From Botryllus schlosseri (lineage: Eukaryota), in assembly GCA_051294905.1 (NCBI GenBank), contig CM119371.1:11720001-11784000 (forward strand): a stretch of DNA of 64,000 nucleotides, given 5' to 3'. The notes below the pieces were generated by a model. That model saw only the letters and a list, made by a program, of their open reading frames with translations. It was not told the origin of the DNA and ran no database searches. This document shows, one piece after another, positions 18,671 to 58,993 of the stretch. How positions within the stretch are numbered: the stretch's first letter is position 1; the number at the start of each line of letters is the position of its first letter. A program made the position numbers and the translations under genes.

Positions 18671-19505
18671 ATGGTGAATGTTTTTCGTTATGTATCGTAT
18701 CGTATCAGAAAAATGGCTCAGCGGGTGAAAAGACAATTAACTGTACAGAATATGGTGGAGCTTCTATTAAGACATGAAGATGAGAATCTAGCTGATCCGA
18801 ATACCTGGCGAAATATATTATCTGACTATCGTCCGTATTCAAATTCACTCTCGAAGAAGCGTAGAGAAGATGATATCAAATTTCTCAAGCGATTCCTTGT
18901 GCGTTATGAGATTCAAATTCTCATGGGAATGGCGGTGTTTCATGGAATATCAACAAGTCTTGTAGATGAAACTGATATAGTTTCTGTCTACTACCGATCT
19001 GAGCTCACCAGAGAAGAGTGGAGCGTAATGCTGAACTCATTTCATTCGAAAAATTGTTTGAGATGGGAGGGTATTTTATGTAGGAAGCTACTGATGTATA
19101 AGAGTTGCTGCTCGTTCTTCTTCGAAGACGTTGAATATAATGGTTTCGTTGAGCGATTACCAATTTTCCAGATTCGTGGGAACTGTAGAACTATTGGGTG
19201 TCATGTGAAATTCCACTTAATTTCACCATATAACAGCAAGCGAAATGTCCTCATAAAAGTGAATGAAACTATGATTGATTGTGAACGAATTTATCCGGAA
19301 ATTAAACGTGAAACTGAATGAATTCGACGTTAAGGGTAATATGCAAATTGTACCAATTTCGTTCCCCAAATTAGCGCCGAGAGCAGATGAATTTGATGTT
19401 TACTCTACGCAAATGGTAATGATTCGTATAATTAATGATGTATTATCGCATATTACGAATATAAAAAATCATTGTGGAAATGTGTTTATTGCTCTGAACA
19501 GGTGA
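18671..19505 (+). pseudogene. Frameshifted ~276-aa ORF, right-arm copy
   Basis: ATG at 18671. In ATGATTGATTGTGAAC at ~19271, deleting one GATT gives ...VNETMIVNEFIRKLNVK... through to the stop at 19505. Confidence 0.6.
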
Positions 19506-24366: not shown

Positions 24367-25253
24367 TCAGTGAATCTTCTTCAGCTTCGCACCAAAAAGT
24401 TCTTCAAGAAATTTCACTTTCGATCTATCGGAAGGATACTCCTTAAATGATATACTGAAATCCTGCAAAGATAAAAATCACAATCGACCCAACTCCATTT
24501 TGAGGCAAAACAAACCTCGATGTTGAAGCGACCTTGATTCCATTCCTGGTATTGCCCTCCTTTACGAATCGAGATATTGATGGCGTCATCGTCCTTGTTT
24601 TTCAAATCGCCGGCATCCAGCTCGACTTTCTGAACATTGTGTCAGCTTAAAACCATCGTGACGCCATATCACACAGGCATTGATTATTATTGATCGCGTG
24701 TTCGGCTCTATATTCGGTTAAATGCGTTGAATGTGACTGACCTTCCAATGCAGGTTTCCAGACCACGATTCAATCCGAGGATGTCCGAGAAACGAACGGA
24801 GCGTGCGACCTGAGATGTTGTTGTTGTTGCGGCGCAAATTCACTTCCTCCACCTGAAACCGCTTTGTTGATCCACTGTGGAGGTATAACGCAACAAAACT
24901 ACTCACGTGGACTGGCTCCTTGAGACATCTCGCGATGACGGCCAACATCTCGTCGTCGATCTGGCAGTAGCGTAAATCCAACTCCCTAAGTCCCTGACTC
25001 CTCGCTACGAGCGTTCCAACGACATGAGCTTGATCGCGGCTCAATGGGGTACGAAATACATCGATGTCGTCAACGTGTTTCATGAGATCGACGTCGTCTG
25101 ATTCGTAGATCGTCATGTAAAGTTCCAGGCGAATAAGCCGCGTGAGTGTGTGCTCTTCGGGTGTCATGTATATGTATCGCTCTGTATGCATCTTCTTCAG
25201 CTGCGAGTGGATCGATCGAGCGAGGACTTTCCGCTTCATTGTTTGAGACGACA
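24367..25253 (-). CDS. NLR-type gene, 3' exons (helical/LRR-like region): 25253-24907, 24852-24742, 24629-24516, 24462-24367
   Basis: LRELDLRYCQIDDEML and VEEVNLRRN are RI-like LRR motifs. GT-AG introns of 54, 112 and 53 nt keep the frame to TGA at 24367-24369. The phase-1 acceptor at 25254-25255 matches the phase-1 donor of the NACHT exon. Confidence 0.75.
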
Positions 25254-25437
25254 CTGTGACGAGACGCACGGTGATAGACGGTCTCTACGCTGCACGCGTC
25301 ACAATGAGAGACATTCACACACTTGGGCGTCAGAACCTCGTCCTGGCGATCCATTGTTTACAGTGGATACAAGCAAACATCGTCTTCGTTTGTTGACATG
25401 TGGCATAAAGGTAGTTATGTAAGACATTCATTTATAC

Positions 25438-27083: not shown

Positions 27084-27232
27084 ATTTATACATGCGGTTG
27101 TATATAGAACTAGTTTTAATCAGATATGGCGCCGCGAAAATGGTACAATCTCAGTTGCTTTAATTATATAGTGCTATACACAACTATATTTGAAAAGATG
27201 AGCGCAGATTGAGACCGAATTAAGCTCTAGCA

Positions 27233-29453: not shown

Positions 29454-32229
29454 CTCTAGGACAACGGTTCTTAATCTGGGTGTAATTTACTAATTTTCGG
29501 GGGCAATTCCAATTGATATTTCTTATAAACTTATAACGCTGCATTGAAATATTTTCAAGCGTAAATATAAATGTGGCTAACATATATTTTTGCAAGCTTG
29601 TGGGCTTTATATATTTTCTTTCACTTAACACATCATGGTTGCTGTATTATTATAGTAACCAGAACCAATAGTGATTATGAATAACATGGTCGAATGTAGT
29701 TTAGCATAGTGCTAGGTAAGTCCAATTTATTTTGCAGTAGTGCAGATTATATATTTTTATGCATGCTGGCAAATTAAAGACAACAAGGAGCGTCTAAATT
29801 TAGCTTTACACCTATAATGCAGTGACAATATCATAGAAATACAGTTGTTAGTATTGAAAAGTGTAGTGGTCTAGTACACTCAGAAAAACTAGGTCTGACA
29901 TTATCAAAATGCCTTCGAAAAACCAAGGAGAACGTATTGGAACATTTTGGGTTCGCTTTCAAAATGATTAACCAATCTTCGTCATAATGGCAGTGACAGC
30001 GAAGCAGTGAAGCACAGAATAAACTCCGACGCGGAATCAAACCCGGGTTTTCGGTGTGAACCACGATTCTTAGGTATACTGTGAATCCCCCATACAATAA
30101 TTTACACTTGCATTAGAAAATCACGACATAATTGGCCCGGTGTTTGTTTGTTTGTTTTATTAACACATTTGGCGCATATTAACTCCTAGGTCATGTGTGC
30201 CCGGACAGTAATTTCATGAATTAATGTCTTTTGGGATCTTTGCCGCATTCTTGCGTAGTTTTTCTGGTCTCTGGCGCCATCTTTCTTGAGTTCGGGTCTC
30301 TCTTCCCTTCTGGACTTTTGAAGGCGCTATATTTACAGCAGGATCGGCGATGAGGAGCCCAGAAAAACCTCCAACACATCGAAACATGGCAGAGACGAGA
30401 CTCGAAATCAAGGGCATAGCCACAAGAACTTTTTTTTGGGGGGAAGGGGCGAAAAATCTGATGAATGTTTTTGAATAAAATAAAGAATTTGATGAATAAT
30501 ATTGGTGCGTGTATATGAGCAAGTGGATTCCAGTAATTAGGCCTATTTCGTTGAAGCACGCGGTTATTTAGCAACCTCTGGTGAAAGTTGACGCTATGGC
30601 CTACTTTAAAGATTGGAATTGAAGATACATACCAAACCAAATTAAAAAAAACTCCTTTGATCAGACTCGTGTGATTCCAAATTAGCACTTTTTAAAGGAG
30701 GTGTGCCAGTCGCATTTATGCCGGAGGGGTCGGATTGCAGGGACATGATCATCAGGCGCCATAGCCATTCAAGCACACGGAAATCTATATCGAAGCCTCA
30801 GAATACAGCATGCGTCGGTTTTATAGTTGTCAATCATTTTGACAGCGCACTGCAGAGTCTCATGTAGCCTACTTTAAATTTCTACGTGTGTCCCGGTACG
30901 GAAATTGCCGTAACCAACAGTCCCCAACCCCCATACTGAAGTGACACCCCTAGACTCAAATCAACCCAACGACCTTGGGATACTCTCGTGTATCTACTGG
31001 TACTGTTGTTTTCTCATGAAAATGCAGCTAAATTCAATCATGAGTATTTTGAAAGAATTTGTTTCGGGATACCAATAAGAAAACCAAGACGTGTATGTTG
31101 GACACTAAATCGCGCAAAGCGCGGACATATTTTTCAGGTTGTATTCATCAGCCCTAAAATACTGTTATATTTATTGATGTTACGAAAACATTCCAGAAAT
31201 TTACAGGGAGCGATCGCCCGTTTCTAGCTACGCCAGTTGTCCAACCAGCAATCAGCGATCACTGCGCCACTCGCCTCCTTCACAGCAGCGACGTATTAGG
31301 GGAGTTGGAGCCTAGATGAACTCTCGACGTCTCGGCACTCCAGAACGTCATTCTGTCGAGGAATGAACTGCCAACTTCCACCAATAAGCCAGCCAACGAG
31401 CCAACCAACCCCTTTGGCAGCGACAACGTTTAAAATAAACGGGGTTATAAAACACTTCGTCTAATACATGTTTTGAACAGTGTTCTAAATATGCGTTTTT
31501 AAAAAAATGTGTTTTTCAAGTGAAATTATGCCATAATTGTGTAAGTACTTGTCAAAAAGCATGTTGTATGAGCTTACAGACAATTACCACCAGATATAGC
31601 CGACGTATATCGATATGGGACGGTTGGACACCTCAGAAAAGTCGGGACAACAGCAATAGTACATATATTTCGTCAAATGAGCTTTATTTAATCTATATTT
31701 TCAATTGCCAATGTGAATCCACTATGACATCACAATTGAATATTCGCGACGTCATGGCTTACAAAAAACAAAAACAATAAACAATAAAATACACATTTCC
31801 ACCAAACGCCTTGTTTTAAACATGTTTGTTTTAAATGCAACCCCATCTCCGTCCATGTTATTTCTATTGAACGTCTAAATTAGATGTATCTAAGACTGGT
31901 AAAATGGCGAAAAATATTAATGCGTAAAGTGTTGAAACGAATTGTTAAAGTAACCAAATCATCAACCGTGAGTATCATAAACGCAAAAAATAATTGAAGG
32001 TCAAGTAATAAAAAACATGCATGCATTCTCCCGCGCCCAGACCAGTAACACTGAGCGAAAAAAAACGGACGTATGTCTAGCTCTAGCATTATGAAATGAC
32101 AAGGGAAACCAAGAATATAGAAATTCATATTACTGGTATATTCGACTCCCCATCATCGGGAATTGATGCTGGATAACAACAACTTGTCAATGAAATTCAT
32201 GTTTTCTTCCGATGACAATACTTTCGTAG

Positions 32230-33335
32230 GTGTTATTCTATATGTATTCGGTAGAATTTGAGTCCCCGCGGTTTCCATGTTTTCTAGATCATATTTCCCA
32301 CGAGGGCAGATTCTACGTGTATGTATAATGGTCAGTGACCGAATGTTTGACCCTCAGTTCATAAGTTCAGTTTTAACTTTTTTACGACAGTCCTCTGGTG
32401 TTTGTGGGGCCTAATTCACCTTACACTCGAAATTTAGGGTGTTCTGCAGTTTCCGCGTTTTCCAGATATTTTCCACCAGGCCATGTTCAGCGTTTACAAG
32501 ACTAAGTTACCAGACGTTTAACCATCAGACAGCTCATAAGCTCAATTTTTAACTATTACGACAGTTCTCGGCCATTTTTGACGCCAAATTCGTCTTATAC
32601 TCGACATTTAGGGTGTTCCGCAGTTTCCGCGTTTTCTAGATACTTTCCACCAGGCTATGTTCAGCGCTTACAATAGGTCTGGAACTGGTCTCGAACTCGA
32701 AATTTAGGGTGTCCCGCGTTTTTCGCGTTTTGTTTGCAACGAGGCCATGCTGGGGCGGTGGCGAGATAGCGCAGTGGTATAATCCGCGGCTGTAACACCA
32801 ATGGGTGCGGGTTCGAGTCCGACCGAGGTCGACTTCCGAATTCCGATACCTAAGTGTTGGAGGTTTACCTAGGCTCCTCCTCACCACCTCATCCGCGTCT
32901 GCGGTGTCTTACAAAAGCATAGAGGTGGGCCGTGCTATAAGTCGGCAGTTACGGAAAATATGAAGAATATCGGCCTGGTGTAAATGACCATAGCAGTCGA
33001 CAAACACCATGAATACCCCAAAACAAACAAACAAGGCCATGCTGGGCCCGTATAATCGTTAGTGACCGAATGTTTAGCCGTCAGATATTTCATAATTTCG
33101 ATTTTTACCTATCACGACAGTTCGCGGCCGTTTGTGAGGTTAAATCTGCGTAGTATTCGGAAATTAGGGTGTCTTGCAGTTTCCGCGTTTTCTAGATATA
33201 TTCCACCAGGCTATGTTCAGCGTCTGTTAGGGTCAGTGACCGAATGCTTAACCCTCAGATACTTCATAAGCTGGATTTTGTATCTATCACAACAGTTCGC
33301 GGTCGTTTGTGAGGTTGAATCTGCCTTACTACCGT
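32230..33335 (+). repeat. Diverged ~170-180-bp tandem repeat array, interrupted by a SINE
   Basis: TTAGGGTGT...GTTTCCGCGTTTTCTAGATA...CCACCAGGCTATGTTCAGCG recurs at ~32270, 32450, 32620 and 33180. Confidence 0.75.
32755..33033 (+). mobile_element. tRNA-derived SINE
   Basis: A box (TAGCGCAGTGG), B box (GGTTCGAGTCC), (AAAC)n tail and a 13-bp TSD AGGCCATGCTGGG (32742-32754, 33034-33046). Confidence 0.9.
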
Positions 33336-33499
33336 AAGCATCGAATTTTGCGAGTTGATGACCTATATCGCTTCGAAGTATAGAAACTTGTTCACAAATA
33401 TTTTTCCAATAGTCTGCCGCCGGTGTTTGATGACTTTTTCATGCCTGTCAAAAATGGCCCTTCCCATTATACAAGATCCTCGTCAAAGGGAAATATCTA

Positions 33500-34105
33500 T
33501 TGAACGCTATGATCTGGGGATTGTATTTAACTTGTAAATCATTTTGTTCTGAACGTAATGAAGTGCGTAAGTCTTTTCATGACAAACGTATTGCTGCTGT
33601 GGAGTTTATTACAGAATCGACGAACACGTTACGAGGACGCGTTTCGGCTCGTCGCGGTGCGCAAGGTTCTACTTCTACTCGTGGCAACAATTCTGATCGG
33701 GACATTGCATTACATTCGATCGATACGGGCGAAAACATATCTGAGATACAATCTGACGCGAGCACGAGACGTCACACAGTCGACATCGCTGCCGACCGGC
33801 CGCTTATACAACACGGGGAAATCTCATCCGAGCCGCAGCCTATAATAGACGAACCGACCGACGAAGCTCAGTTCTCACCAGATACCAAACGGCGCGATCA
33901 CATCCATGATAAAACGTACGCGGCCACATTGGATAGTCCTGCCACAATGGTACGTGATCGAGAGCCTGATACTTGTGCAATTCTGACCCGTCACGATTCA
34001 ATAGCGGCATCTCCGAAATTGCCGCGCCCAAAGAAGAAATCCAAACGCCTGACAAGACCTGACGCTCAGATGAGATCAGGCAGTCACCCTGCCACACATG
34101 AGTAG
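33500..34105 (+). other. 201-codon open frame, low-complexity with a basic tail; possibly a non-LTR retroelement ORF1 remnant
   Basis: A long stop-free frame, more GC-rich than its flanks, followed by a T/G-rich tract. No diagnostic motif recognised. Confidence 0.25.
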
Positions 34106-35165
34106 AAGCTGAAGTGCACAGCCCGAGCGTGTGATTGAGATATACGTTGAATATATCCAATCTAAATTGTACTGATCGAAGTACAATTACTGTGATATGT
34201 AACGGCCACATTGTATATATCGGTGGCCACGGACTGTTGTTGGAAGTTGGATAGCCTCTCTGACTTGACTGGTGTATTGCACTTGATAACGATGCCTACT
34301 GAGATGTATTTTATTGTGTATTCTAGTTCTTTTTCTAGGCTAGGCTTAGTTAGATTTTTAGGCTACATATTTCTTGTATGTTAATCTGGATTGTAGTGTT
34401 GTATTGGATAACAATTTTCTAGTTAGATTAATCTGGAATTCTGTTGTGTGTTTTGTTAGGCTAACTTGTATATTATAAAAGCTGCTAGAAAACCTTGTTC
34501 ATGCTCTCTAATGTTGTTGTATTATTGACTGAAGAGTTTGATTCCATTACTAGGATTGTCTTAGCTATGTAATTGCTGTTGTCTTCCCATATACTTGTGA
34601 TTGTTCACTTCCCCTGTCATTTACATGGCAGTTTCCTCCTTTTTTTTTTTGGGGGGGGGGGGTCGATGTATAGCTGTGGTATCGGAAATCAGTGTATTGT
34701 CTCACCCTATTAGCATACGAATATGACTTCCTATTGCAATTATCTCGAGTATTTATAAGCTCGTGTAAGAGCTGAGTCGGGATGAGACTTATTTGCTAAA
34801 CCTACTAGTACCAACGTCTGAAATATATCCGTATGTCTTGCGTCTATCTGCGTCTAAGAAGATCTCACCAGGTTACAGGATTCCAGTTAAGTAGTCAGCC
34901 AGCTAAACCTATAATATTTTGCTGTCAGATTTCTCGCCCAATTCCGGTCTTTCGACATATTTATGGTCATTGATCTTTTAGGCCTGGATGCTATTCATTA
35001 TTAGATTCATTGACTCCTGAAATGCCGACTTGGAGCAAGGCCCACAAAAATTTTGCCCACTTTCAATAAAGAAGGCCTACGTTAACTGAATAGCCTAGCT
35101 CTAAAAATTGGCGTTGAGTTATAGAGTCAACATCATCAAATTTAGTTGGATGTGTAATATCTAAC

Positions 35166-36560
35166 CTCTGTAAACATCATTTTGAGATTTCGAGAAGACG
35201 ACGCCAGCCACGAATCTTCGTACGACGGACCATCGCTCTTCATGGAGATGTTCTTCGTCGAAGCGAGCGAATTCGTTGAACTCCATTTCTGCTACGAAGA
35301 TCGCTGCCAGATATTCTTGAATGCTTTGATGGCAAAAGAAGAATGTGAAGTCTCCTTGCATCAAATACCGACTCAGAAGATTGTTCCCAGGAACTTTCGT
35401 CATCAAATCTTGTACTTCCTTCGCGGAAACTCCAAATAAATTCAAGTCCATCTCTTTGAATACGACCCGTCCTTCTTTCATACCACGAAATGCCAATTCC
35501 TTTAGTTTGTTGACGATCGATAAAATTTCTTCCCGGTTTCGAATATTTTCGAGACTTTGTAGAGCTGAGATGATTCTGTTGTATAATTCTGTTACCGTTG
35601 CTGGGACAGGTTTACTTGAATCCCTCCCCATCACAACTGCCGTTAAAATCAGAAAAACGGGAACCGAAACTAAATTGAGCAATCTTGGTGACACAGTTTC
35701 AATTTTCTCCCAGAGCACTTCTCCTTCCTCTTTGAGTAAAAAGGCGAACAGCCTATGCGCATCTTCCAGAGTAAAACCATGGAGCATAACGATGGTTTCG
35801 GGTCTAGCCGGTGCCGGTAACTCTGAAATCTTGAACTCGCGTGATGCGATATATATTTTGACACGAGGGAGAATATTGCGGGAGAGAATGTTATACATGA
35901 TTGTCCATAAGCTGGCTTTGTCATACTTTCTTATTTTGCAGGTATTTCTCTCCTCCAAGTTCCACGTTGCTTGATCAAGCCCGTCAAATATCAATATTGC
36001 CTCCGATTGGTGTTCATATAGCCAGTCGTAAGCCAAATCTTCTTCTTCTTCGCTTCGGTACAGCCCTCGAAATATAAATCTTGATGGTTTGGTTTCGTTC
36101 ATTTCTGGATTATCCTTCAAATCAATATGATGCACCAACTTTTTACCGTAAGATGAGATATCTTCGGCATCATCTGTTGCAGATATACCGAGAGCTTGTC
36201 TAGCTATTCTGCGTATGAGGGTGGATTTTCCCGATCCAGCAGATGCGACAATAGCGGTTACACCAACATTTTTTGACGAGCTCGCCGTTTCCCTCTGCCA
36301 CATGGATGCCTCTAAGTCACCGATCTTGATATCTTTCGCTTCAATTCTTTTCTGCGTCAGAAATCCAATTTCCTGTGTCAGCTGATCATGGCCATATCGA
36401 CCTTTGTAATAATCGTGCACGTCAACTTGTCGCATTTGCGGGTAAACTTCAAAGTCAGGTTTCTGAAGCTCTTCATGTCGAAAGTCATCGAGGATGTCAA
36501 TATTGGTCGCTGCCTTTGTATGGTCGTTGCAAATTTGTATGAGCTTTTCGATACTGATCT
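35166..36560 (-). CDS. NLR-type gene, large NACHT NTPase exon
   Basis: Walker A ASAGSGKST, Walker B AILIFDGLDQ, sensor-1 IYIASR, VPVFL motif and winged-helix FCHQSIQEYLAA. Acceptor TTTTCAG at 36561-36567 and donor GTTAG at 35161-35165. Confidence 0.93.
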
Positions 36561-37414
36561 CTGAAAAATAAGATATCAGCAATTTTGAATTTTAGGATTT
36601 AGTTGTTTTCATAGAGAATATCAAGACTTTGAGTCAATCCTAATTAGCTGAGTTCTTTTGCCTGAAAAACATGCTGTCTGAGGTTCAAAACTAAGTGGAG
36701 TATTTCATGCATTTTCCGTACGTAAAATGAAATATAAATATAATTTTTATGAATTATCTTATTTTCGGGTTACGTATAATAATCGTGCAATGCGTTAGTG
36801 AAGTATCCGTTTCACCTTATCGTTAGTACAAATCGCCTTTTCTCTGAGGCAAAAATCGACTTAGCTACGGGCCCTAGAATAGTAGGTAGTGTTCCATCCA
36901 TGACATTTGTTGGCAGGAGATGCTTTGACGCACCCAAGGGAGAGGGGCGCCCCCGAACCACTGGATTTGAATTATCTTGGTGAACTATAATAAGAAAACG
37001 TTTAAGTGAATTGAGGACTTTACACAGAGAAATATGTATCAATTGGAGGTAAATTGCGCCCGGTGCTAATGTTTTTGCAGCTGACCACAGATTCTCGCTC
37101 CATTCAGCTGTTTTCACGCCCCCGAGTTTGAGAACCAATAAGCCCATTTACATGGTCGTTTGGGTCAGCTTCGAAGCTAACTCCGTCAAGCCGACTCTCT
37201 CGTTTTTGAAAAAGAGAGAAAAGGCAGACGGCTTCAATCCGTCTTGAGCTCAATCCGTTCCTCAGAGTCGCTTGGAGACGGCTTGAACAGTACCGGTACA
37301 TGAGAACGAATCCATACTGCAGCAACATACCAACATTTCATGTTCATATTTCACGAAACCGGCACGTATTTCAACTGGGTGAATGTGAAAGCTCTATCAG
37401 TACATGATAGTGCT

Positions 37415-40400
37415 TGTCACGGTGGATATTATTTTCTTTATGGCTCACTCGCCACTTATACTGCTTCGGAGCGCACGTGTGTTCATTTACGTGAGCGACG
37501 TGGTGAGAGTAGCCAGCTTTGTTTTGCTGTTGTTGATCTGTTCATTTATTGTTTTATTTACTGGAGTATTTGGTCTTACCAGGATATTACCAGCAATTTT
37601 TCAACGGTATTTTAATAAGATATTCGTCCATTTGGAGTTCTTGTTTCGTACCAGTTGGGGAGGAGATCCAGAGTCAGCCTGCTCCAATCACATTCTTCAT
37701 AAGTCTCTACTTGGAGACGACAAAGGTTGAAAAATTGAGTGTATTCCATTAACTTCGTTATGGATCCTCCATCTACAGTAAAAGACTTCGATGCGCGAGT
37801 CAATCTTATTACTTTTGGTCCAAGAAGAGACCCTAATGCCTATAAGGCGATTACTGTCAAAGGCTTCGATATGCAAGTCACTGACAATATTTTGGCCGGT
37901 CTAGCAAGGGACTTCCACGCTGCCGATGCCTATTTTACTAAATGTTTGAGTGGAGCTACTCCCCGAACTGTTCTGGCTGCAAAAGACAGTCTTGACGAGA
38001 CATTCCATCGAGTCAATACCCAGTTGAACAATCTTACTACCGGTATCAAAGACAAGATAACCGAGGGCAGTGTCGATGCCGAATCAATATTGGAAAGAAT
38101 TTTGTCATTTCATGACCTGTGTCTATATGCAAAGAATATTGCTGATGGCACATTCCGTAAACTTATTACTGCTGAAAGTGTAAGTATGTCACTTCACAAC
38201 TTTACAGACATTGTGGACGCATGAAGAAGACAATTTGAAAAGGTTGGAATGGGAACTTTTCAGTGCTCAGTCAAAATTTGAACGGTATAAAGCAATTGTT
38301 TCGTCACAATTTGGATCATTAGCTTCTGTAACCAGTCATAAAGGTTGCTGCGGCTTGGATAGTAATGACACCCACAACAAAGGACTGCCAGTTGGCAACG
38401 CTATTAATGATAAACCACTCACAGAAGACTTTCTCGATGCTGAGGCCATTACCACTCAATGTCAAACTTTCGCGACTTGCCCTACTCCACCTGTTGTAGG
38501 ATGTTCGTTGTCAGAGAAGATATCCAATTACAGATTCTCAGCCCCACGTAATGGGTCGGCTGTGAAACCAGTTATTTCATCCGACTACCTATTCTCTGTC
38601 CCCTGTAATGGGCCGGCTGTGCAACCAGATTTGATATTCAGTTGCCGTTACTCAGAAGCCTATAATGGGCCGGCTGCGCAACCTAAAATATCCTCTAATT
38701 GTCAATACTCAGCCACCCGTAGTGCGGCGGCTGATGCGACCAACTTTATTCAAGGCTTTCACACTTGTGAAATGTTCATTGATAGTTCTACGCACCCCGC
38801 AACAGATAACACTCACAATTGTGAGCTGCTGCAGTCTGCTCAACATCCTGTTATTCCATCTTCATCTCCTGTAAGTCAACAGGATGAAGCCAATGTTGAT
38901 CCAAATTCCGACGATTTCGTTGAATTTGTCGAAAAGGAAATAGCATTGACTCGGTCACCATTTGGTCCGGTCAACAATGAATTTGATTGTTCACTTGAAC
39001 CCGAAGACATCGATCCAAACATACCTCACAAGATGTAGCCTACTCGAAGAATCCGCGCAAAACTGCAATAGAGGTGAATTCTACATCTATGGATTCCGGC
39101 TCGATGCGTCGATGTACCTCTGAAAAGGAGCTACGTTCATCATGTATCCTGTGTCAAGATCTTCATCTTCTCTTCAACTTTGAAGAAATCCAAAAGATGC
39201 AAGTTCGGCAACGTCATGGACTCGTAGAAGAGAGTCTGGTGCGCCGTAATCGTTCATTCTGTGATCATGATCACAATTATTACCCATCCACATGTCATTG
39301 CAAAATACATGGATGTGGCTGTGCTCAAAGCACTTTATTACATGACGCATATAATTGTTCATTACATCCTAAATTGATTGTTGTTGCCAGTAACAACACA
39401 GTTATGGCTCTATCTCCTGCAATTGCCGAGATAAGTTTTCAGGTACATCTGTCTACACCTTTGGTGATACTCACCTGTCTGGTAGCTTCTACCAGTTTGA
39501 TCGCACGTGCATTCCTTATTTCTGGGGCTACCAACTGCCTGTGTACTTTCTTATTCCTAAACCAATTGGTTATCAGTGGTGAACCGCTGACTTATTTAAT
39601 AAATACCGCTGCCATCCTTCTCCGCCAGCCTAAATTTGTGCCCATATCAGTTGAAGGAATCGGGTAAAGCACAGGCATCAACTTGCATGATGTATTAGCT
39701 ACTGGTCACTTTCCTGTTATTGAAAATCTACCCCCAAGCGCAGTCATTGTTGCACAATGCGCATGCACAATGATACCTGAAGGGCGTGTCCATCTGTACA
39801 ATGTCCACCCAATTATTGATGTAAATGATTTTTACTGTATTATTGGTAACAAGTTCTTATGCGTTACTTGGATTACGAAGTCAGCAGTTACTTCATGACA
39901 ACTTGGCCATTCTTTTATGGGTTGTGACAAAACCCTTCGAACTAATTAGGTGTATTCCACTGAGGTTAATTTCCTTGATTGCAATAACAAGACTTCTGTT
40001 ATTGTTGAGAATGTCATGAGACACTATTTTTTCTGCATTTAATGCCAATTTTACTAATCCTAATTTTCAATTCACTTCTAATTCATCGCTCATTGGGGTA
40101 TTATGTCGATTTTGAATACTTGAATGTCCATGGGCAGCAGATCTGACTTCAGATGACTTCTCACACCTGACACTTGTGCTCCTGATATAGCACAATTTTG
40201 TGTTCGCAAAATAATTGCCTGCGACGTACTTACGTCGATAAGGCAACCCTTTATTGTATCCTAATCATGCTTCCTGACTGTAATGGCTTGGTCAGGAGAG
40301 TGAGGTTTTGTACTGTAAGTAGAACCTACGAACATCATATTCGTAAGTTCATATTCGTACAACCACCCTGTGTATTTTTACATTTTGTTAACATTCATTA

Positions 40401-40779
40401 CCACCGCTCATCAGTTATTGTGACTCTATGTATTTGCTTTGGCAGTTCACAGTTCGTCACAGGGCCGGCTATGTCACGGTGGATATTATTTTCTTTATGG
40501 CTCACTCGCCACTTATACTGCTTCGGAGCGCACGTGTGTTCATTTACGTGAGCGACGTGGTGAGAGTAGCCAGCTTTGTTTTGCTGTTGTTGATCTGTTC
40601 ATTTATTGTTTTATTTACTGGAGTATTTGGTCTTACCAGGATATTACCAGCAATTTTTCAACGGTATTTTAATAAGATATTCGTCCATTTGGAATTCTTG
40701 TTTCGTACCAGTTGGGGAGGAGATCCAGAGTCAGCCTGCTCCAATCACATTCTTCATAAGTCTCTACTTGGAGACGACA
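37415..40779 (+). mobile_element. Internally deleted BEL/Pao LTR retrotransposon (LTRs 37415-37722 and 40472-40779)
   Basis: 308-bp TG...CA direct repeats with one mismatch noticed, and a 5-bp TSD GTGCT. Internal remnants: Gag zinc knuckles (CILCQDLH...CKIHGCGCAQSTLLH), a protease-like segment (ARAFLISGATN) and a post-integrase motif (PDCNGLVRRVRFCTVSRTYEHHIRKF). No RT or RNase H recognised. Confidence 0.9.
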
Positions 40780-40859
40780 GTGCTTTTATAATATGCTCGC
40801 GGTCTTATTTGTTCAGCGTCACAACTTATGAAGCGGGTACAGCCAACAATATAACTTAC

Positions 40860-42072
40860 CCAGCTCACTATCAGAAAGAATATATACATACACGGTGTAT
40901 TTGGTCATTCTAGAATTATGTTGAAGTATGTCTGGATATCTCAGGTGCCGTAGCATATTCCCGAGCTGAATCCCAAAGTGCTGTGCATCTCTCGAGATGC
41001 GATAAACATGACCATTGACCATGTAAACTCGATCATTTTGGCAAGCCGTCTCATGACGTCACTCCAAGACGACTTGACTCCAAGACGACTTGACCATGTA
41101 AATGGTCTTAATGTGGTAGAGCGGGGCTTCATTCTTGAACCTGATTAATGCTTGGTTCACGATTGTCACGGTATAGGCAAATGTGTGTGTGTGTGTGTGT
41201 GTGGGGGGGGGGGGGGTTCTGGTTGGTTCAACAGAAGTTACCTATTCAGAAAAGATAATACTGCTCTGTTCCATCCTAAAAATTGGCATCAAGCTCAAGT
41301 CATTTTTACCATTTCAAAAGAGTCATTGAAGAAGTGGCTATTGAAATTACCGAATCATTTCTATCTCCTTACAGTGAGACGGTGTCGTGCGTAGTAGCTG
41401 GGTAAATTGTAAAGCAAGTTCATGGTATTCCGACTTACTCGATCGTGGGGGCCTGCTTACTCCCTCAGTACCACTTGCCGAGTTTTTTTCATCCAGTTTT
41501 TAATCCTAAATTGTTCTGATAAAATCGTCTGTCCTCATCCTAAGTCACAGTGAATAGGTTTTGCATCACGGTTTTTTATTTGGGGGGGGGGGAGCGGCTT
41601 TGCATTTTGCATGTTATGATCATCGAGATCAAACTTTGAAATTGGCGACAAAATCATTGTGAATGTATATTACAATAACAAGCAGAAGCTAGTTAATACC
41701 TCTGTGAGAAAAATGCTTTAATAACGGACAATAAAACAACAAAAGTTGAGAAAGACGTAACTTGCATTCTTCGGTGATGCATTTCATTTTCATTACCGGT
41801 ACTTATGGCCGTAGCTTGTATGCTGCAAGTTTGTTTTTGATACAAGTTGGTTATTGCAAGTAGTTTTCAATATGACATGTGTACCGATTCTTCTTCACGT
41901 GCTTGAATTGATTTTACCATGCAATAAAATGGTTTACATGAGCATGTCAGTGTTTTCTCACCACTTAGCCTACTACTGAATCGGTGGATAACTGCATCTA
42001 CGAGGCTGTCTCTTGCCACTTTCTCATGGTACGGTACTGATTTGACCTGTTGTACGAATACATGCAGCTTAT
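40860..42072 (-). CDS. Candidate internal exons of the NLR gene (42072-41962, 41275-41242, 41140-40860)
   Basis: GT-AG boundaries with compatible phases (1-1, 1-2, 2-1) give NKLHVFVQQVK...RLSG-WNRAVLSFLNR-FKNEAPLYHIKTIYMV... The last exon carries an in-frame stop inside a 75-nt insertion. Confidence 0.45.
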
Positions 42073-42574
42073 CTGAAGCGATGCGTCCGGTAGCGAGAAG
42101 TGAAATCGCGCATAATCGCGAATTTCTGTTTTGTGAGCATAGGCCTGTTAGCTCTTGCAAGCATAGTACCAGATAAGGCCGTGAATATCGTAGGCTCCGG
42201 GTAGGGATTTGCTCACATTAAAAAACAGTGTTCCACAAATTGCCTAATTAAATATGACCTAATTTTGATTGGCGACAGAATCGACAATTTAGGACGTAGA
42301 GGTTGTGAAAATCATTTCTCTACAACTGATCCATCACATCTCAAGCATAATATAACATTTGACGAGGAATCTAGTTTACGAAATTGCGATAACATCATGT
42401 TGTCATTGTGCCGTTAGAAAATAAGATGGTGTCAGAGTCCATTGTTGTTTGTGCTCGGTGTGATATTCGTTCGGACAATTTCAAAAATGGGATATTGTGT
42501 TGTTTCCTCTACTCGTATTATGGGTGTCATTCAATACTGGTTATGCGTACTATGAAAAAACAGCATGGACTTAC

Positions 42575-42871
42575 TTTGGTCCGCAGGATTTGCTGGGCTT
42601 TCAGCATTCATATAGTACTTGTTGATAACCTTGTTACCATGAATCTCATCTCCTGCCACAACCTTAACCTCGCTATTGATGAAATTTTGATATATGTTTT
42701 CACCATCTGCCAGCGTCGCAAATCCTGAGATACACAAGGATAACACCAGTATCAGGTTAAACAACAGTAAATATTATTATACCTGGATATGATCGATAAA
42801 AGGGTTAGCAACTATGATTTACTGACCGCTTGCCCCGGGCGATGATGATGATGATGATCGTGGCGGCATGT
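42575..42871 (-). CDS. NLR upstream module 2: 45-nt Ser/Pro exon (42871-42827) plus 150-nt RHIM-like exon (42724-42575)
   Basis: Both exons are phase 1-1 with GT-AG sites. They encode DMPPRSSSSSSPGAS and GFATLADGENIYQNFINSEVKVVAGDEIHGNKVINKYYMNAESPANPADQ. Confidence 0.7.
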
Positions 42872-43732
42872 CTGCGACATTATAATTTTGGTCTTCACTC
42901 CTTTCCGCCCTGAGAACTATCCAGGGATATTAATAAGCTACTGTGTGATAAAAATATTGACATGCAAGGACAATAATTACGATACTTTATGAATTTCGTC
43001 ATCACAACACGTCGAGACTAAAAATTGTTTTATTATGAGAGCCAGGGTAGGGAGAAATCATAAAGATGCGAATCACAAGTCAATTTGAATTTTATAGTTA
43101 GACCTACTACTCCAGTCAATTCGCTTCATTTTCAATTCACCGACGAACCAGCAAGCCCGAGTCCAATAAGGGAGCAACGGTTCCATTGCCAGTCGTAGTG
43201 TCCATACTCGATCGATCAATCTATGTGTGGTGTAACGTTAGAGTATCACATAAACTTACAATCAGTGAATAACTATAAAGTTGCTCTCACAAGTGACACC
43301 GGCGAATCGCGAACAATTTTAGCATACAATGATAGGGTGATTTCATCGACACCGTTTACTTAATGACTTGAAATTAATACGTGAATTTGGCTCCGAGTCA
43401 CGAGTCAATCCACATTTCTGATGCGCCGAGTCAAGTCAACTCAAGTAATACGAGAAAGTTGACTCAAGTCATCTCCACACTGTTACGGACCTCATGAAAC
43501 CTTGGCGAAAACACGCTAACGTGATCTCATAACGAATAGGATTAGGGTTGGATTGACGTAACTGTTGAATTATGTTTTTTTTTATCACAATGTTCCATGC
43601 CGTAACGCCCCGCTGACGTGCCCCTATTAAACTGTCACTCCTCATAATGCGGGATGCTCAAGTATCGTGTGATCAAGCAGACCATTTTCTCCAATTGAGA
43701 CACCATATTCAATGAGAGAACATTGCACTCAC

Positions 43733-44138
43733 CTTGGTCAGTGGGAGTTGCTTCTCCTTCAGCACCGGTAATGTTAAATACGATCTTGTTTGCATTTATT
43801 TGATCTCCGGTCACGACGTTAACAGTGCTATTTGCGAACTCTAGATTGACATTTTCCCCTTCAGCCAAAATTGCGGATCCTAATAGACAAGCGATTATTG
43901 TAATGTGATTGAGGATCCATACATATTCATATCATAATATAATATGGATTCCATTATTTTCTTTGAATCCGTTCGGCATCTTATTCACACAACGAGTGGA
44001 ATGCGCTGCCTTTGAGACACTCTACGTACGTTTAGTATGGGTTATATCAATAACAATTTCAAGTTATCTGAGATCAAATATAATACAGGCATTACATACC
44101 GCTTGTCCAGGGTGATAATGATGTAGAGATGGCATTAG
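43733..44138 (-). CDS. NLR upstream module 1: 39-nt exon (44138-44100) plus 147-nt RHIM-like exon (43879-43733)
   Basis: Both exons are phase 1-1. They encode xNAISTSLSPWTS and GSAILAEGENVNLEFANSTVNVVTGDQINANKIVFNITGAEGEATPTDQ, clearly paralogous to module 2. Confidence 0.7.
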
Positions 44139-44563
44139 CTACACCAGAATTTTGATCTTGACACCCTTCTGTCATTGTATTGATAACGTGGTACTAATTC
44201 GCTAGCGCATATACCAATACTGAAAATACATACGTCCATTTCATTCTATGACAAATATTTTCTGTACAACAGGTCTAGACTGTCAATCTGGAGCTCTGAG
44301 ATATATAAGGTAAATCTGATCATATTCGAGTTATATTTGGGAAATATGACCCGTCAACAGTCAAATATATCCACAACTTAGTAATACTCTATAATCAGTA
44401 TGCCTTTTAACCTTTTTGAGCACCATTCGCACCAGCCAGCCGGAAACAATTTCACTAAAAGAAAGTAAAAAACTTATTACTTTTGTATTCGGAGAGCTTC
44501 GTGGGGGTAGAGAGCTTCCTTTTTTTACATTCAGCGTATTGTATTATTGATTAACAAGCTTAA

Positions 44564-49205: not shown

Positions 49206-49309
49206 CTGAATATACCAGAGGTGTCTGTAATAATACAGTCTGGCTTGAAAAGCTAGATTACCGGACGGGTTTAAGTTGAATTTACATTGAGTGACTGTAA
49301 TGTTATATT

Positions 49310-49635
49310 ACTGCCAAGTGGCTTGTAAGCTAGAGGCTTCAGAAGGTTTGAGACTTGCCAATAAGTTGAAGAAGTCTCATGTTGAATGGCAGCAACAAAA
49401 GATGAAAGTAAATTTGGCTGCTCAAACAATCAGCAGCAGTGTTGCAGATGCAATAGAATACTGTGACAAGAACCTAAGAATGAGATGCTTTCGGGGTAGT
49501 GCTGCTACTGTCAAGTTTTTGCGGAGTTTTGATCGCCTTTTTGATATCCTTAATTCGAGAAACCCGTTCGCAAAAGGATATAAATCGCCTTTAAAGGAGT
49601 CAAACCAGCATTTGTGGCGTCCATTTATGACATAG
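49310..49635 (+). pseudogene. P-element/THAP9-family transposase fragment
   Basis: EGLRLANKLKKSHVEWQQQKMKVNLAAQTISSSVADAIEYC...FDRLFDILNSRNPFAKGYKSPL is a characteristic THAP9/P transposase segment. Confidence 0.9.
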
Positions 49636-54329: not shown

Positions 54330-55415
54330 GTAAGTCTTCCCGTTACCCCTCACTGGTCATTGCACAAGCAAAACAAGTCGCTCAACAATTATCGATATTT
54401 TCAATCGTCGTGGCAGTGGCTTAGCCGATTCAGAGCACGTCGAGAATTGTAGAAAGTTTTACTTCATGGTGAAGGAGGTCAAGTTGTCAAGGAAGACGCA
54501 AAGCTATTGGCTGCACTGAATGATTGACATGTCATAATTGCACGATATGATCCTGAAAATGTGTATAACATGGATGACATGGGGTTGTTTTTCCGTCTGC
54601 TACCTAGATATACCTTGCTTATGCCATTCCAAGATCTAAGCAGCATCCGAGGGAAGGAGAAAGCTAAAGACCGTGTTTCGTGGTCTGTTATTTTTGTTGT
54701 TGTGCAAATGCCACTGGAGCACACAAAATTTCCATGCACAATGTACATTTATTGGGAAACTTAAATCTCCGGCCTGTATATAGGATTGGAGAGGGCCTGT
54801 CAAATATCTTACCGTAAAGCATGGATGGACGTTGACACATGTTGGAAAGGGTTCCAAGAAGAGTTTTATCCTGGAGTAAAAAAGAGAACAGGATGCCTGG
54901 TTCTCTTGTTCTTGGATAGCGCTCTAGACCATTTCCGGTCTTTGAACGGAATAACGTTAAAGTGGATTTCTTTCCACCCGATTTTACTAAGTTGGAAACA
55001 GCCATGGGACATGAAAATCATCGCGGCACTGAGGAAGAGGTACAAATATTTATATCTCAGGGAGGTTTTGGACTTTTACGAGCTTAACAAGACTTTGAAT
55101 GCCCACAAAAAAGAGCAAGCTAAAAGATTACCCAGGGGGACGGCAGGTGTTGCTTGGGAACCATGCGCATTTGCTGGATGCTGCTCACTATGTAAAGCAA
55201 GCACGGTATTACCTATCGGAAGCGTTGGTGGCGTTGATGAGGAAGCTAACTTCATGTCTGAGATTTTGCGCTGTTTTAGGTCTAGTACTATTTCGATTGA
55301 CAAATACGAGCTAAAAGGATTTATGTTTGTTGGTGATGATAATATTGAAGAGATTGTTAAGTTGACGTTCAACTTTTCCCGGCATGCAGTTAATGGTGCT
55401 TGCTGCTTAAAATAA
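54330..55415 (+). pseudogene. pogo/Tigger (DDE_1) transposase pseudogene
   Basis: YDPENVYNMDDMGLFFRLLP, RGKEKAKDRVS, KAWMD, LVLLFLDSA and QPWDMKII occur across several frameshifts. Confidence 0.85.
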
Positions 55416-58488: not shown

Positions 58489-58993
58489 CCGTATCACGTA
58501 AGTATGGCAATATCTGTGAATAAACTTTTTACGAAGTACGAACCCAGATAAACTTCATTATAAGACGGCCCGAAGACTATGATTGTAATGAAACAATGTC
58601 AGCTAAATAGTAAACAAGCGTCCCAAATACGCCAGACATTGATCATTGTTCAGGCCACATTGTGACGAAAACATGAATTACGGATGGATGGATAACCATG
58701 CTGGAGCCTGGATTACTACCAATTTAGTTTTATTTTCGATGAGGCATGCTGAACTGAACAGCTAGAAGCAGGTGATGAGACGACGGCTTCCGTTGTGGCA
58801 CAGCAGGATTGATCGATAGATGTGTTAAGGCGGTGTTAATATTTATTAAAGAAAGCTTTTAGATGCGCCGCCCATAGTGATTTTGTCGTCCATGGTGAAT
58901 TGCTTTAGGTCTATACGGAAACTAACTTATATTGTATTAGGCTATGTGACAGCGGTAGTATTGTTATATAGTAGGCTACACTAACAGTAAATA

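Follow-up and report, generated by a model that had tools for sequence, protein, structure and literature searches.

Two heads upstream of one NACHT gene in Botryllus schlosseri, and a possible stacking role for the head motif of a large ascidian NLR family

A start-codon exon and the motif exon that follows it are the standard "head" of a large, lineage-specific family of ascidian NLR genes, and one NACHT gene of Botryllus schlosseri is preceded by two such heads. The gene lies on the minus strand of a 64 000-nt stretch of DNA (the window); its parts are listed in Table 1. We assign copy 1 (44219-43733) to the gene whose main exon is 36560-35166, as its working head, and take copy 2 (42956-42575) for a head of another sub-type, now in the first long intron, that most likely arrived by unequal or ectopic recombination among paralogs. 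The copy 2 start exon is dead, with acceptor and ATG lost, and its motif exon, still open in frame, well spliced at both ends and in the right phase, is a relic or an optional cassette; cassette use would yield a protein with two tandem motifs. In the resting monomer the head segment would be unfolded. NACHT oligomerisation would then gather the heads, which may stack in register as a beta-arcade or beta-solenoid-like assembly of amyloid type, and the stack would be the signalling or recruiting surface that replaces a CARD, PYD or Death domain. Gene anatomy and family facts are shown by the results below, whereas the stacking mechanism is inferred; to the account as a whole we give a probability of about 0.5.

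RESULTS

Gene layout

Table 1. Features of the NACHT gene region in the window
Feature	Position	Strand	Evidence or remark
Start-codon exon (exon A) of NLR head	44100..44219	-	homology to paralog loci
Motif exon 1b	43733..43879	-	147 nt, phase 1-1, encodes SAILAEGENVNLEFANSTVNVVTGDQINANKIVFNITGAEGEATPTDQ
Decayed copy of exon A (module 2)	42827..42956 (about)	-	nucleotide alignment to exon A, z 13.2
Motif exon 2b	42575..42724	-	150 nt, phase 1-1, frame open
LTR-like insertion	37415..40771	+	in the long intron between heads and NACHT exon; outside the gene's coding sequence
NACHT exon	35166..36560	-	1395 nt, phase 1-1
Open frame with next recognisable exon after NACHT	24721..25284	-	one weak LRR

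Motif exons 1b and 2b are both flanked by AG and GT and stand 7.2 and 6.0 kb, respectively, 5′ of the NACHT exon on the same strand. Since the borders of 1b, 2b and the NACHT exon are all phase 1, either large exon can join the NACHT exon in frame. An earlier note on this DNA had described two large phase 1-1 exons on the NACHT strand and the peptides that they encode; coordinates, borders and translations agree with it, and the motif does lie on a symmetric exon. The LTR-like insertion carries two 300-nt direct repeats that are 100% identical.

The NACHT exon matches Pfam NACHT with E 6.8e-14 (52.5 bits, cut-off 26.7) and is bordered by acceptor tttttcag/AG and donor AGAG/gt, both phase 1 (a slash marks the exon border). 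NOD2_WH- and HD2-like traces follow NACHT in the same exon, and PDB chains of NLRP1, 7, 2, 5 and 6 match it at E 1.8e-8 to 5e-4. The pre-NACHT sequence before the P-loop is about 105 residues long and has conserved blocks of its own; it separates the head from the P-loop, and the head could pack on that region instead of stacking. Searched against longer proteins, the NACHT exon found one Styela clava and one fish protein, both without the motif.

The gene had been called a NACHT-LRR gene. The NACHT half of that name stands, while the LRR half is only partly borne out, by a single LRR_6 match below the cut-off (E 0.0056) inside 24721-25284; the exon there also matches a Styela clava NLR in the region that follows NACHT (E 1e-6). 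There was no LRR match in the 47 other minus-strand frames of at least 55 aa between 12 and 35 kb, a screen that would miss LRR exons of small size.

Three contig runs and one raw RNA-seq run, mapped on 24500-44499, gave a depth of 0-1.5 over the head exons and of 0-17 over the NACHT exon. Depth elsewhere fell mostly on repeats, and none of the 15 listed joints (of 23) connects exons of the gene. The 12 Logan ORFs of the NACHT exon lack the motif; each of them starts within the exon or in intron read-through. That the head is a short N-terminal motif ahead of the NACHT of an NLR follows from gene anatomy and family statistics, not from transcripts.

Head copy 1

Four internal exons, all symmetric 1-1, had been proposed for the two modules. 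For the small exons this is wrong at the 5′ border: the first is the exon with the start codon of the family, and the second is a decayed duplicate of that exon. We take the first small exon to be 44100-44219 because its ATG and its TTTCAG acceptor are conserved across paralog loci. This exon A has a conserved acceptor AG at 44221-44220, about 44 nt of 5′UTR and an ATG at 44175-44173, and its coding part of 25 codons (MTEGCQDQNSGVANAISTSLSPWTS) plus 1 nt runs to the donor G/gtatgt; a further 5′UTR exon upstream is implied. Of 29 paralog loci, 20 yielded a homolog of exon A, at a distance of 162-225 nt before the motif exon. The ATG is present in 18 of these 20, and the homologs share the TTTCAG acceptor in the 5′UTR, about 45 nt upstream of the ATG. 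Both TTTCAG and ATGGCA are kept in at least 80% of the 19 aligned copies. The pN/pS of the leader in exon A is 1.02, so there is no amino-acid constraint on it. Motif exon 1b fits the family consensus at all 21 highly conserved columns and scores 98.9 bits against the family HMM.

The acceptor proposed earlier for this exon, 44140-44139, was rejected. It lies inside exon A, and the codon there reads GTC GCT in most aligned paralogs; a few read GCC, ACT, TGG or ATG, and none has AG. The two small-exon acceptors of the earlier proposal follow tracts that are 44-50% pyrimidine, against 72% at well-supported acceptors. An acceptor weight matrix trained on the paralogs was also dropped: it gave -17.5 to the conserved start-exon acceptor, and it scores homology of intron ends, not splice strength.

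Head copy 2

In the start exon of module 2 the ancestral acceptor has changed from CAG to CAA and the ATG to AGG (42911-42909), and an (ATC)6 microsatellite at 42841-42858 encodes a Ser run. The donor G/gtcagt is kept, and what had been called exon 2a (42827-42871) is the 3′ part of this decayed exon. The acceptor proposed for exon 2a (AG at 42873-42872) was rejected, being a change private to module 2 with a purine-rich tract before it. The intron within the module is 102 nt long, against the usual length of about 215 nt.

Motif exon 2b is in better repair. Its splice sites are intact (acceptor tctcag/GA, donor A/gtaagt) and its family-HMM score of 80.6 bits falls in the family range of 67-102. 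It departs from the consensus at 7 of 21 conserved columns, with four substitutions unique to it (S1F, N20K, Q26E and N35K), three of which put charged residues in place of near-invariant Asn or Gln. Against its nearest sampled relative dN/dS is 0.63, over 48 codons only, where the family median is 0.32. The three charged substitutions (N20K, Q26E, N35K) and this ratio make 2b lean towards a relic; it is possibly an optional cassette exon or a relic.

By BLASTP 1b and 2b share 23 of 48 residues (about 48-49%; E 7e-13), and their nucleotide alignment is well beyond shuffles (z 13.9). The introns adjoining them are unalignable (z -0.7), and the 300 nt downstream reach z 2.1. It had been noted that the protein pattern is kept while the introns are dissimilar, and the exon and intron scores bear this out. 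A recent local duplication of the module is not supported, as 2b is nearer to the heads of other NLR genes (62-63% identical) than to 1b (49%). Two heads stand upstream of 7 of the 118 distinct NACHT exons; as examples, C2:26859365/26859874 and C2:39494759/39495504 are two-head loci. When second heads were sought with the family HMM, neither the rest of the window nor 49 other loci gave one.

The head family

At E<=0.01 the genome of 495.5 Mb has at least 100 motif-exon matches, and every one of them is open in frame; two genome searches pooled gave 118 distinct NACHT exons. A same-strand NACHT exon lies within 40 kb downstream of 68 of 100 motif exons (median 9.2 kb); for one of the 100 it lies upstream and for one on the opposite strand. 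Two further motif exons pair with NACHT matches of an additional search. The AG acceptor of the motif exon is at the same position in 51 of 51 rows, which represent 40 distinct copies, and a phase-1 GT donor follows in 31 of 31 rows. Unplaced head loci share many repeats, which swamped an all-against-all tblastx.

The median dN/dS of the motif exon is 0.32 (478 of 496 pairs), so the exon is under purifying selection. By part, pN/pS is 0.21 in columns 1-7, 0.40 in the core and 0.82 in the tail.

Similarity of heads and similarity of NACHT exons are discordant (Spearman -0.20, n=47 loci), both taken as identities to a single reference, without trees and over loci that are not independent. In the 19 loci with the closest NACHT exons the heads have a median identity of 57% to 1b, against 66.5% in the other 28, and at one locus the head is 88% identical and the NACHT exon only 48% identical. 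This suggests that heads have been swapped among paralogs, and the head exons appear indeed to be exchanged as the earlier note had supposed.

Character of the motif

The head opens with a Ser/Pro/acidic leader that is free of constraint; about 37 constrained residues come next, and a variable linker follows them. The motif core of about 30 residues falls at about residues 34-63 of the predicted protein. Its composition is N 20.6%, V 18.7%, I 9.2%, P 0.9% and L 3.3%, where the NACHT exon of the same gene has N 4.2%, V 6.5%, P 2.7% and L 9.9%. The core is thus enriched in N, V and I and depleted of P and L; it shows neither enrichment of G and Q nor depletion of K, so that the composition fits published amyloid signalling motifs in part.

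The column profile of the consensus has four beta-prone stretches (NVNLKF, VNVVA, QINV and IVYNI) with three polar or G-D breaks. Among the columns where a single residue prevails in 26 or more of the 32 copies are N9, V10, N11, F14, S17, V19, N20, V21, V22, G24, D25, Q26, I27, V33 and N35. Chou-Fasman beta propensity has maxima at residues 14-22 and 29-34. An AlphaFold2 monomer model has a mean pLDDT of 50.7 and no secondary structure, and on this model the head motif does not look like an autonomous fold. A low-confidence coil model fits an unfolded resting state and proves nothing. The claim of an animal NACHT gene in which a brief stretch, beta-prone and N/V/I-rich, takes the usual position of a death fold is supported.

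Comparison with RHIM

The motif had been called RHIM-like, a label that the tests do not support. Neither module and none of the 32 family copies matches Pfam RHIM (PF12721), even at E<=10, and the core tetrad [IV]Q[IVLC]G occurs in none of the 32 copies; the consensus columns there read V-V-A-G-D. A genome-wide RHIM scan gave three matches, the best at 17.7 bits (cut-off 20), none of them at a head exon. The scan agrees with the cited part of PMC4262963, where tunicates appear to lack RHIMs.

There are likenesses between the head and RHIM (RIPK1, RIPK3, ZBP1, TRIF and amphioxus BF82280). Both belong to animal innate immunity and are short, non-globular beta motifs with unstructured flanks, and RHIM too can stand N-terminal to NACHT or in tandem. 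The head differs in lacking an HMM match and the core tetrad. As an animal NACHT protein with an N-terminal RHIM has already been described, amphioxus BF82280 (in the cited passages of PMC4262963), the premise that animal NLRs use death folds needs softening.

The reading of the earlier note, namely two two-exon modules whose four internal phase 1-1 exons encode RHIM-like amyloid motifs tuned in number by skipping, is improbable. In its favour, symmetry would let either large exon be left out or kept in frame, the earlier 2a acceptor (42873-42872) preserves phase 1, tandem RHIMs with unfolded linkers are known (from part of PMC4262963), and the tandem Met-starting units of a Styela clava model (below) indicate that duplicated start-exon modules can enter annotated coding sequence in this family. 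Yet RHIM membership fails in every test run, the small exons turn out to be the exon with the start codon and a decayed version of it, and both earlier acceptors are unconserved in paralogs and lie behind purine-rich tracts.

Comparison with other NLR N-termini

The closest parallel is with the motifs of fungal NLRs (HET-s/HRAM with NWD2; Basidiomycete motifs). As described in part of 10.1101/2020.01.06.895854, NLR amyloid motifs have about 25 residues, are enriched in N, V, I, G and Q and depleted of P and L; the cited part of PMC4518210 gives four beta stretches and three arches, with one copy on the NLR. Passages of PMC9815663 report for Basidiomycota NLR motifs three hydrophobic positions and a G[DN] bigram, and find dozens of copies on the NLR side in each genome but linked effectors rarely or never. 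The head is alike in that a short motif before NACHT replaces a folded effector domain; in its four beta-prone stretches, three turns, three spaced hydrophobic positions and G[DN] pair; in being rich in N, V and I and poor in P and L; and in that NLR-side copies number dozens to hundreds in a genome while linked effectors are scarce or absent, as in Basidiomycota. Two repeats with a flexible Pro/Gly/Ser linker would arise here too if 2b were included.

Known NLR amyloid motifs are 21-25 residues long; the head core has about 30, and it differs further in having no detected homology to them, in standing on a separate symmetric exon, in belonging to an animal genome, and in having no effector with the motif among the matches listed. 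The search against HET-s, PP motifs and solved amyloid chains gave no homology, and PDB chains gave nothing below E 0.5.

The defining feature of amyloid signalling is that the same motif occurs on a non-NLR partner, usually at the C-terminus of an effector. The earlier note had looked to other proteins for the motif. It is indeed repeated, on at least 100 exons, but all that can be placed are NLR paralogs, and an effector-type partner was not found among the matches listed. These searches were made exon by exon and judged among the matches listed, and a partner may have been missed. A profile search of 1.84 billion representatives gave nine matches, eight to the same exon family and one to an unrelated repeat protein. 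No annotated protein was found to carry the motif: the family profile matched only four short unspliced ORFs among longer proteins. The back-translated core occurs 29 times in the genome among the matches listed, always in head exons. Among the exons listed, inspection by eye showed none for caspase, Death or TIR within 40 kb of the 30 heads without a NACHT exon, some of which lie on contig C8 at 3.86-4.01 Mb and on contig C3 at 21.6-21.8 Mb. A link between motif and NHL repeats was rejected: an NHL-repeat gene does follow two heads on contig C8, but it starts at an in-frame ATG of its own and the acceptor nearest to it, of phase 2, is incompatible.

Of 77 pattern matches in prokaryotes none was confirmed as a relative. 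NCBIfam gave scattered weak matches, the strongest of them (E 0.0058) to a fimbrial adhesin, which 3 of 32 copies matched, the ESM Atlas a best score of 0.84 without a usable family and nothing in the named clusters, and PADLOC no match. The bacterial NLR motifs and adaptors (BASS1-10; EAD10) resemble the head as small N-terminal homotypic modules on a STAND NTPase. EAD10 (PF19954) has weak matches in 3 of 32 copies, the best two listed at 16.4 bits (E 0.0098) and 13.1 bits and in consistent register, but these are below the curated cut-off (24.1 bits). Run over the genome, the EAD10 model recovered other places only and no head exons. EAD10 is of mixed alpha+beta structure (PMC7159879).

With the PYD and CARD of vertebrate NLRs the head shares its place in the protein and, presumably, homotypic nucleated polymerisation after NACHT oligomerisation. 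It differs in having no six-helix bundle, for which it is far too short, and no Pfam death-fold match. Replacement of a PYD has a precedent in NLRP3/ASC signalling with HET-s/NWD2 (cited in PMC4518210). Published surveys list ascidian NLRs with no N-terminal domain, to go by the cited part of PMC11508797.

Among named proteins, those nearest to the NACHT exon (31-43% identity) are Styela clava "NLRC5-like" and uncharacterised NACHT proteins (P0021, P0022 and P0031), whose N-termini are short, repetitive and not of the death fold. In the NLRC5-like model P0031 the N-terminus is built of three tandem units, which are about 48 residues long and all begin with Met. The N-termini differ in that they do not align with the head motif, and hhalign against the beta-rich N-terminus of P0021 gave a probability of 0.1%.

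DISCUSSION

By analogy with the fungal NLR motifs an amyloid-like or beta-stacking signalling role of the head is plausible. The alternative that survives best is a head that acts as a regulatory tail or short linear motif (for example in autoinhibition, docking or modification), or as a strand that packs on the pre-NACHT region, with module 2 dead and never spliced in. We consider this unlikely, though a serious contender. It would account for the lack of a motif-bearing partner among the matches listed and of homology to known amyloid motifs, for the low-confidence coil of the AlphaFold2 model, for the conserved blocks of the pre-NACHT region, and for a module 2 that has neither ATG nor acceptor and has charged residues at conserved Asn and Gln. 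But Asn, Val and the G-D turn are conserved by position in at least 32 diverged copies with pN/pS of 0.2-0.4, which exceeds what a generic disordered tail needs, the composition is of the beta-solenoid and amyloid-signalling type (as given in part of 10.1101/2020.01.06.895854), and in 2b the frame is still open, neither splice site is lost and the HMM score is typical of the family.

The more specific form of the stacking account is doubtful, and we put it forward tentatively: the family would signal through an amyloid-type, in-register head motif of its own with no sequence relation to RHIM, and the symmetric exon that bears it would be shuffled among more than 100 paralogs and occasionally doubled to give HET-s-like two-rung proteins. 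That module 2 is an alternative 5′ end, with an intronic promoter and a start at an in-frame ATG in the decayed exon (...NVADMPPRSSS...) and reading through 2b to NACHT, is very improbable, for although that ATG lies 13 codons and a split codon before the intact 2a donor, the 200 nt upstream of copy 2 are unlike the upstream region of the working head (z 0.3) and the conserved 5′UTR acceptor context is degraded in copy 2.

If the head is only a regulatory tail, the locus is ordinary gene-fragment debris in a tandemly evolving immune family. At least 100 exons in one genome, mostly upstream of NACHT, encode a selectively maintained beta-type motif at the place where an effector domain is expected, in contrast to published accounts in which ascidian NLRs are listed without an N-terminal effector domain (cited part of PMC11508797) and tunicates apparently have no RHIMs (cited part of PMC4262963). 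The discordance of heads and NACHT exons and the doubled head indicate recombination that rebuilds modular receptors. If templated stacking is true, amyloid signalling by NLRs would extend from fungi and bacteria to a chordate by way of an independent motif, the heads would be a second animal family of signalling amyloids, one tied to NLRs, and the signalling mode of the ascidian NLR expansions would become directly testable.

Gene model

The features of the NACHT gene all lie on the minus strand of the window, and are collected in the table. The earlier note had described two duplicated, RHIM-like modules of two exons each upstream of a NACHT-LRR gene, an observation that is real but partly mis-drawn. 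Its two large exons, here motif exons 1b (module 1) and 2b (module 2), were correctly placed and translate to the peptides it gave. Their proteins are identical at 23 of 48 residues (E 7e-13), and the claim that protein is kept while introns are dissimilar is borne out by nucleotide alignment, with z of 13.9 over shuffled controls for the exons vs −0.7 and 2.1 for the neighbouring introns. The NACHT exon (borders tttttcag/AG and AGAG/gt, slash marking the splice junction) aligns with NLRP-type chains in the PDB (E down to 1.8e-8), and its nearest named relatives are Styela clava proteins at 31–43% identity. Since it shares the phase of 1b and 2b, in-frame joining is possible from either. From the start-codon exon to the next recognisable exon 3′ of NACHT, the gene extends over at least 24.7–44.2 kb; the latter exon holds one sub-threshold LRR, so in the label NACHT-LRR the first term is secure and the second weakly shown.

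Features of the window. For the transposase remnants, domains are listed in coordinate order.
Feature	Position	Strand	Remarks
Start-codon exon	44100-44219	-	ATG at 44175; paralog alignment
Motif exon 1b	43733-43879 (147 nt)	-	Phase 1 both ends; pyrimidine-rich tract and AG before, GT(G/A)AGT after
Motif exon 2b	42575-42724 (150 nt)	-	Phase 1 both ends; pyrimidine-rich tract and AG before, GT(G/A)AGT after
NACHT exon	36560-35166 (1395 nt)	-	Pfam NACHT E 6.8e-14; phase 1-1
Next recognisable exon 3′ of NACHT	inside 24721-25284	-	Styela clava NLR post-NACHT alignment E 1e-6
LTR-like element in NLR intron	37415-40771	+	Two 300-nt direct repeats, 100% identical, 3057 nt apart
244-aa open frame	10395-11126	-	Inverted relative to the next; one difference in the first 60 residues shown
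244-aa open frame	18587-19318	+	Near-identical start to the preceding
Transposase remnant upstream of NLR gene	49291-49632	+	TNP-like GTP-binding insertion domain, E 2.4e-33
Transposase remnant upstream of NLR gene	54765-55412	+	DDE_1, E 2e-4
Transposase remnant upstream of NLR gene	58991-60615	+	hAT dimerisation, Hermes-like DNA-binding trace

The small exons were redrawn. When 1.5 kb of sequence 5′ of each of 29 paralogous motif exons was searched for the first of them by blastn, 20 loci held a homolog, 162–225 nt upstream of the motif exon. Aligned copies open with ATGGCAGAAGG, and the start codon is ATG in 18 and GTG in two (heads L007, contig C1:3.27 Mb, and L013, C1:1.79 Mb, which may be pseudogenes or genes that start elsewhere). 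In the paralogs a TTTCAG acceptor is conserved about 45 nt 5′ of the start codon and similarity ends beyond it; on this alignment a further, non-coding exon must lie 5′. The predicted protein N-terminus is MTEGCQDQNSGVANAISTSLSPWTS. The first acceptor originally proposed (44140-44139) falls within the start-codon exon, where paralogs lack AG. The second small exon is a start-exon copy that has decayed: its acceptor CAG has become CAA and its ATG AGG (42911-42909), an (ATC)6 run has lengthened the Ser stretch, and the intron before 2b measures 102 nt vs the usual ~215. The AG formerly taken as its acceptor is private to the module 2 copy, with a purine-rich tract before it. The symmetric 1-1 phase claimed for four exons is confirmed for the large ones but not for these two.

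A Styela clava ‘NLRC5-like’ protein (919 aa) has three tandem N-terminal units in residues 1–135, two of 48 residues and the third partial, each starting Met-Ala-Ala, as though the annotated coding sequence had taken in duplicates of a start-exon module.

Family size and linkage

We searched the window's own assembly (495.5 Mb) with 1b, obtaining at least 100 matches (E ≤ 0.01; 150 of 157 candidates scored), every one of which has an open frame. Two NACHT-exon searches gave at least 118 distinct NACHT exons, and the Pfam NACHT model more; all are lower bounds. A same-strand NACHT exon follows within 40 kb for 68 of the 100 motif exons (median 9.2 kb), while NACHT is upstream for one and on the opposite strand for one. 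Two further motif exons pair with Pfam-model matches, the 10 kb examined at each of 20 initially unpaired heads (start-codon exon plus motif exon) held one NACHT exon, and adding a second NACHT sub-family paired several more heads. The acceptor AG position is identical in 51/51 rows, representing 40 distinct copies, and the phase-1 GT donor is present in 31/31. The heads in the window belong to a very large NLR gene family.

The motif and its relatives

Purifying selection acts on the motif exon (median dN/dS 0.32; 478/496 pairs). Its pN/pS is 0.21 in the first seven columns, 0.40 in the core and 0.82 in the C-terminal linker; the start exon, at 1.02 (105 pairs, 15 copies), has no amino-acid constraint. 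In the family consensus, SATLAEGENVNLxFxKSSVNVVAGDQINxNKxVYNITxAEGE, 21 columns hold a single residue in 26 or more of the 32 copies, among them N9, N11, N20, Q26, N35, the pair G24-D25 and an alternation of V/L/F/I. Asn makes up 20.6% of the core, Val 18.7%, Ile 9.2%, Pro 0.9% and Leu 3.3%, compared with 4.2, 6.5, 7.8, 2.7 and 9.9% in the NACHT exon of the gene. Read along the sequence, four short beta-prone stretches are broken at K-S-S, G-D and N-K, with beta propensity maxima at residues 14–22 and 29–34. AlphaFold2 on the 32-sequence alignment returned coil (mean pLDDT 50.7), a model in which the segment does not appear to fold on its own.

The motif is not a RHIM, and the RHIM-like label finds no support. 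The Pfam RHIM model matches neither module and none of the 32 copies even at E ≤ 10, gives nothing above cut-off in the whole genome, and the RHIM core tetrad occurs in 0/32. Among 1.84 billion representative proteins, a profile search matched nine: eight are ORFs of this same exon, unspliced, and the ninth is a bacterial repeat protein that is unrelated. No relatives were found in PDB sequences, ESM Atlas, NCBIfam or PADLOC, and none of 77 pattern matches in prokaryotic genomes was confirmed. The only recurring Pfam lead was EAD10, a bacterial effector-associated adaptor domain, in 3/32 copies, the two shown in detail sharing a consistent register. Its best score (16.4 bits) is below the cut-off (24.1) and a genome scan did not reproduce the weak matches; it is kept as a lead only.

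Published NLR amyloid motifs are, in the parts of the sources cited here, ~25 residues long, rich in N/V/I/G/Q and poor in P/L (10.1101/2020.01.06.895854), with four beta stretches, three arches, and a single copy on the NLR against two on the effector (PMC4518210). They are also described as having a G[DN] bigram and three hydrophobic positions, with NLR-side copies numbering dozens per genome; in Basidiomycota, where an effector is not linked to them, their proposed role is to stabilise the NLR oligomer itself (PMC9815663, in the sections cited). The head motif fits these descriptions in several respects. A putative amyloid role is kept as a reasonable analogy. An animal NACHT protein with an N-terminal RHIM is already described in amphioxus, and tunicates appear to lack RHIMs (PMC4262963, passages cited). 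Ascidian NLRs are listed without an N-terminal domain in the cited part of a 2024 survey (PMC11508797), and the cited part of a 2025 paper confines its count of signalling amyloids associated with NLRs to fungi, bacteria and archaea (PMC12261475). Full-text literature searches on NLR amyloids and tunicate NLRs gave no description of the motif, at the level of search results beyond these papers.

Proposed function

Its position ahead of NACHT, constraint pattern and composition suggest that the head is a homotypic assembly module, which would act in place of the missing death-fold domain. The weakest point of this reading is the absence of a non-NLR carrier. The back-translated core was found 29 times in the genome, every time in head exons (reversed control, 0 matches), so that the partner effector envisaged in the earlier note did not appear. 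By eye, none of 30 unplaced heads is within 40 kb of a caspase (70), Death (111) or TIR (4) exon among the matches listed.

On contig C8 (3.86–3.93 Mb), an NHL-repeat gene of the six-bladed propeller type with very short introns (L039:4099-5102) lies ~3.5 kb downstream of a head exon, and at the tandem neighbour matching NHL frames (L046:8269-9222) begin ~7.6 kb downstream, past an LTR retrotransposon; neither head has a NACHT exon within 9 kb. As a motif partner this gene was rejected, having its own ATG and an incompatible phase.

Repeats and mobile elements

The LTR-like element is covered by RNA-like contigs with joints that go back about 3050 or skip 3370, and suggests a recent, possibly active insertion; its internal ORFs (37739-39664) have no Pfam match. 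Nor do the 244-aa frames, which may be arms of a large inverted duplication or of a mobile element. Summed RNA-like contig depth is very high (up to ~20,000) at 32504-33170, 25167-26500 and 43176-43842, the last in the intron between the two heads; these are probably abundant dispersed repeats. Rfam gave nothing above gathering score over the window.

Elsewhere in the assembly, at least nine places have a Death-domain exon and a 257-aa caspase-like (Peptidase_C14) frame at a distance of ~16 kb, with scores that are nearly the same (e.g. C1:36371542/36392876, C1:7939904/7955522, C13:24710226/24726282 and C16:14429888/14446023), which looks like a dispersed large repeat with death-fold and caspase-like genes. 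Many other Death exons form inverted pairs ~10 kb apart.

Origin and fate of module 2

Module 2 is not a recent local duplication: 2b is 62–63% identical to heads of other NLR genes vs 49% to 1b, and the introns are unalignable. Comparison of heads with their NACHT exons points to exchange of heads among paralogs. Over 47 loci, head similarity to 1b did not follow NACHT similarity to the window gene's NACHT (Spearman coefficient −0.20), a crude comparison made by identity to a single reference over non-independent loci. Median head identity was 57% at the 19 loci whose NACHT exons are closest (≥68%) and 66.5% at the other 28, and a contig C9 locus combines a head 88% identical with a NACHT exon 48% identical. 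Such exchange would be eased by the long intron that separates head from NACHT.

Two heads lie within 40 kb upstream of 7/118 NACHT exons, and no second head was found within 49 other loci examined. The family HMM scores 2b at 80.6 bits (family range 67–102). It is off-consensus at 7/21 conserved columns, tied for most among the 32 copies (median 2), a sample picked with 1b and thus leaning towards 1b-like copies; four of its substitutions are unique, three of which place a charge at a near-invariant Asn/Gln. We take module 2 to be a captured head with a dead start exon and a motif exon that is either a relic or an optional cassette. A direct 1b>2b junction remakes the family's G/GA glycine codon, and if 2b is spliced after 1b, the protein would carry two motifs ~20 residues apart. 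Most likely the tandem arrangement arose incidentally from head swapping, and one half of it has decayed.
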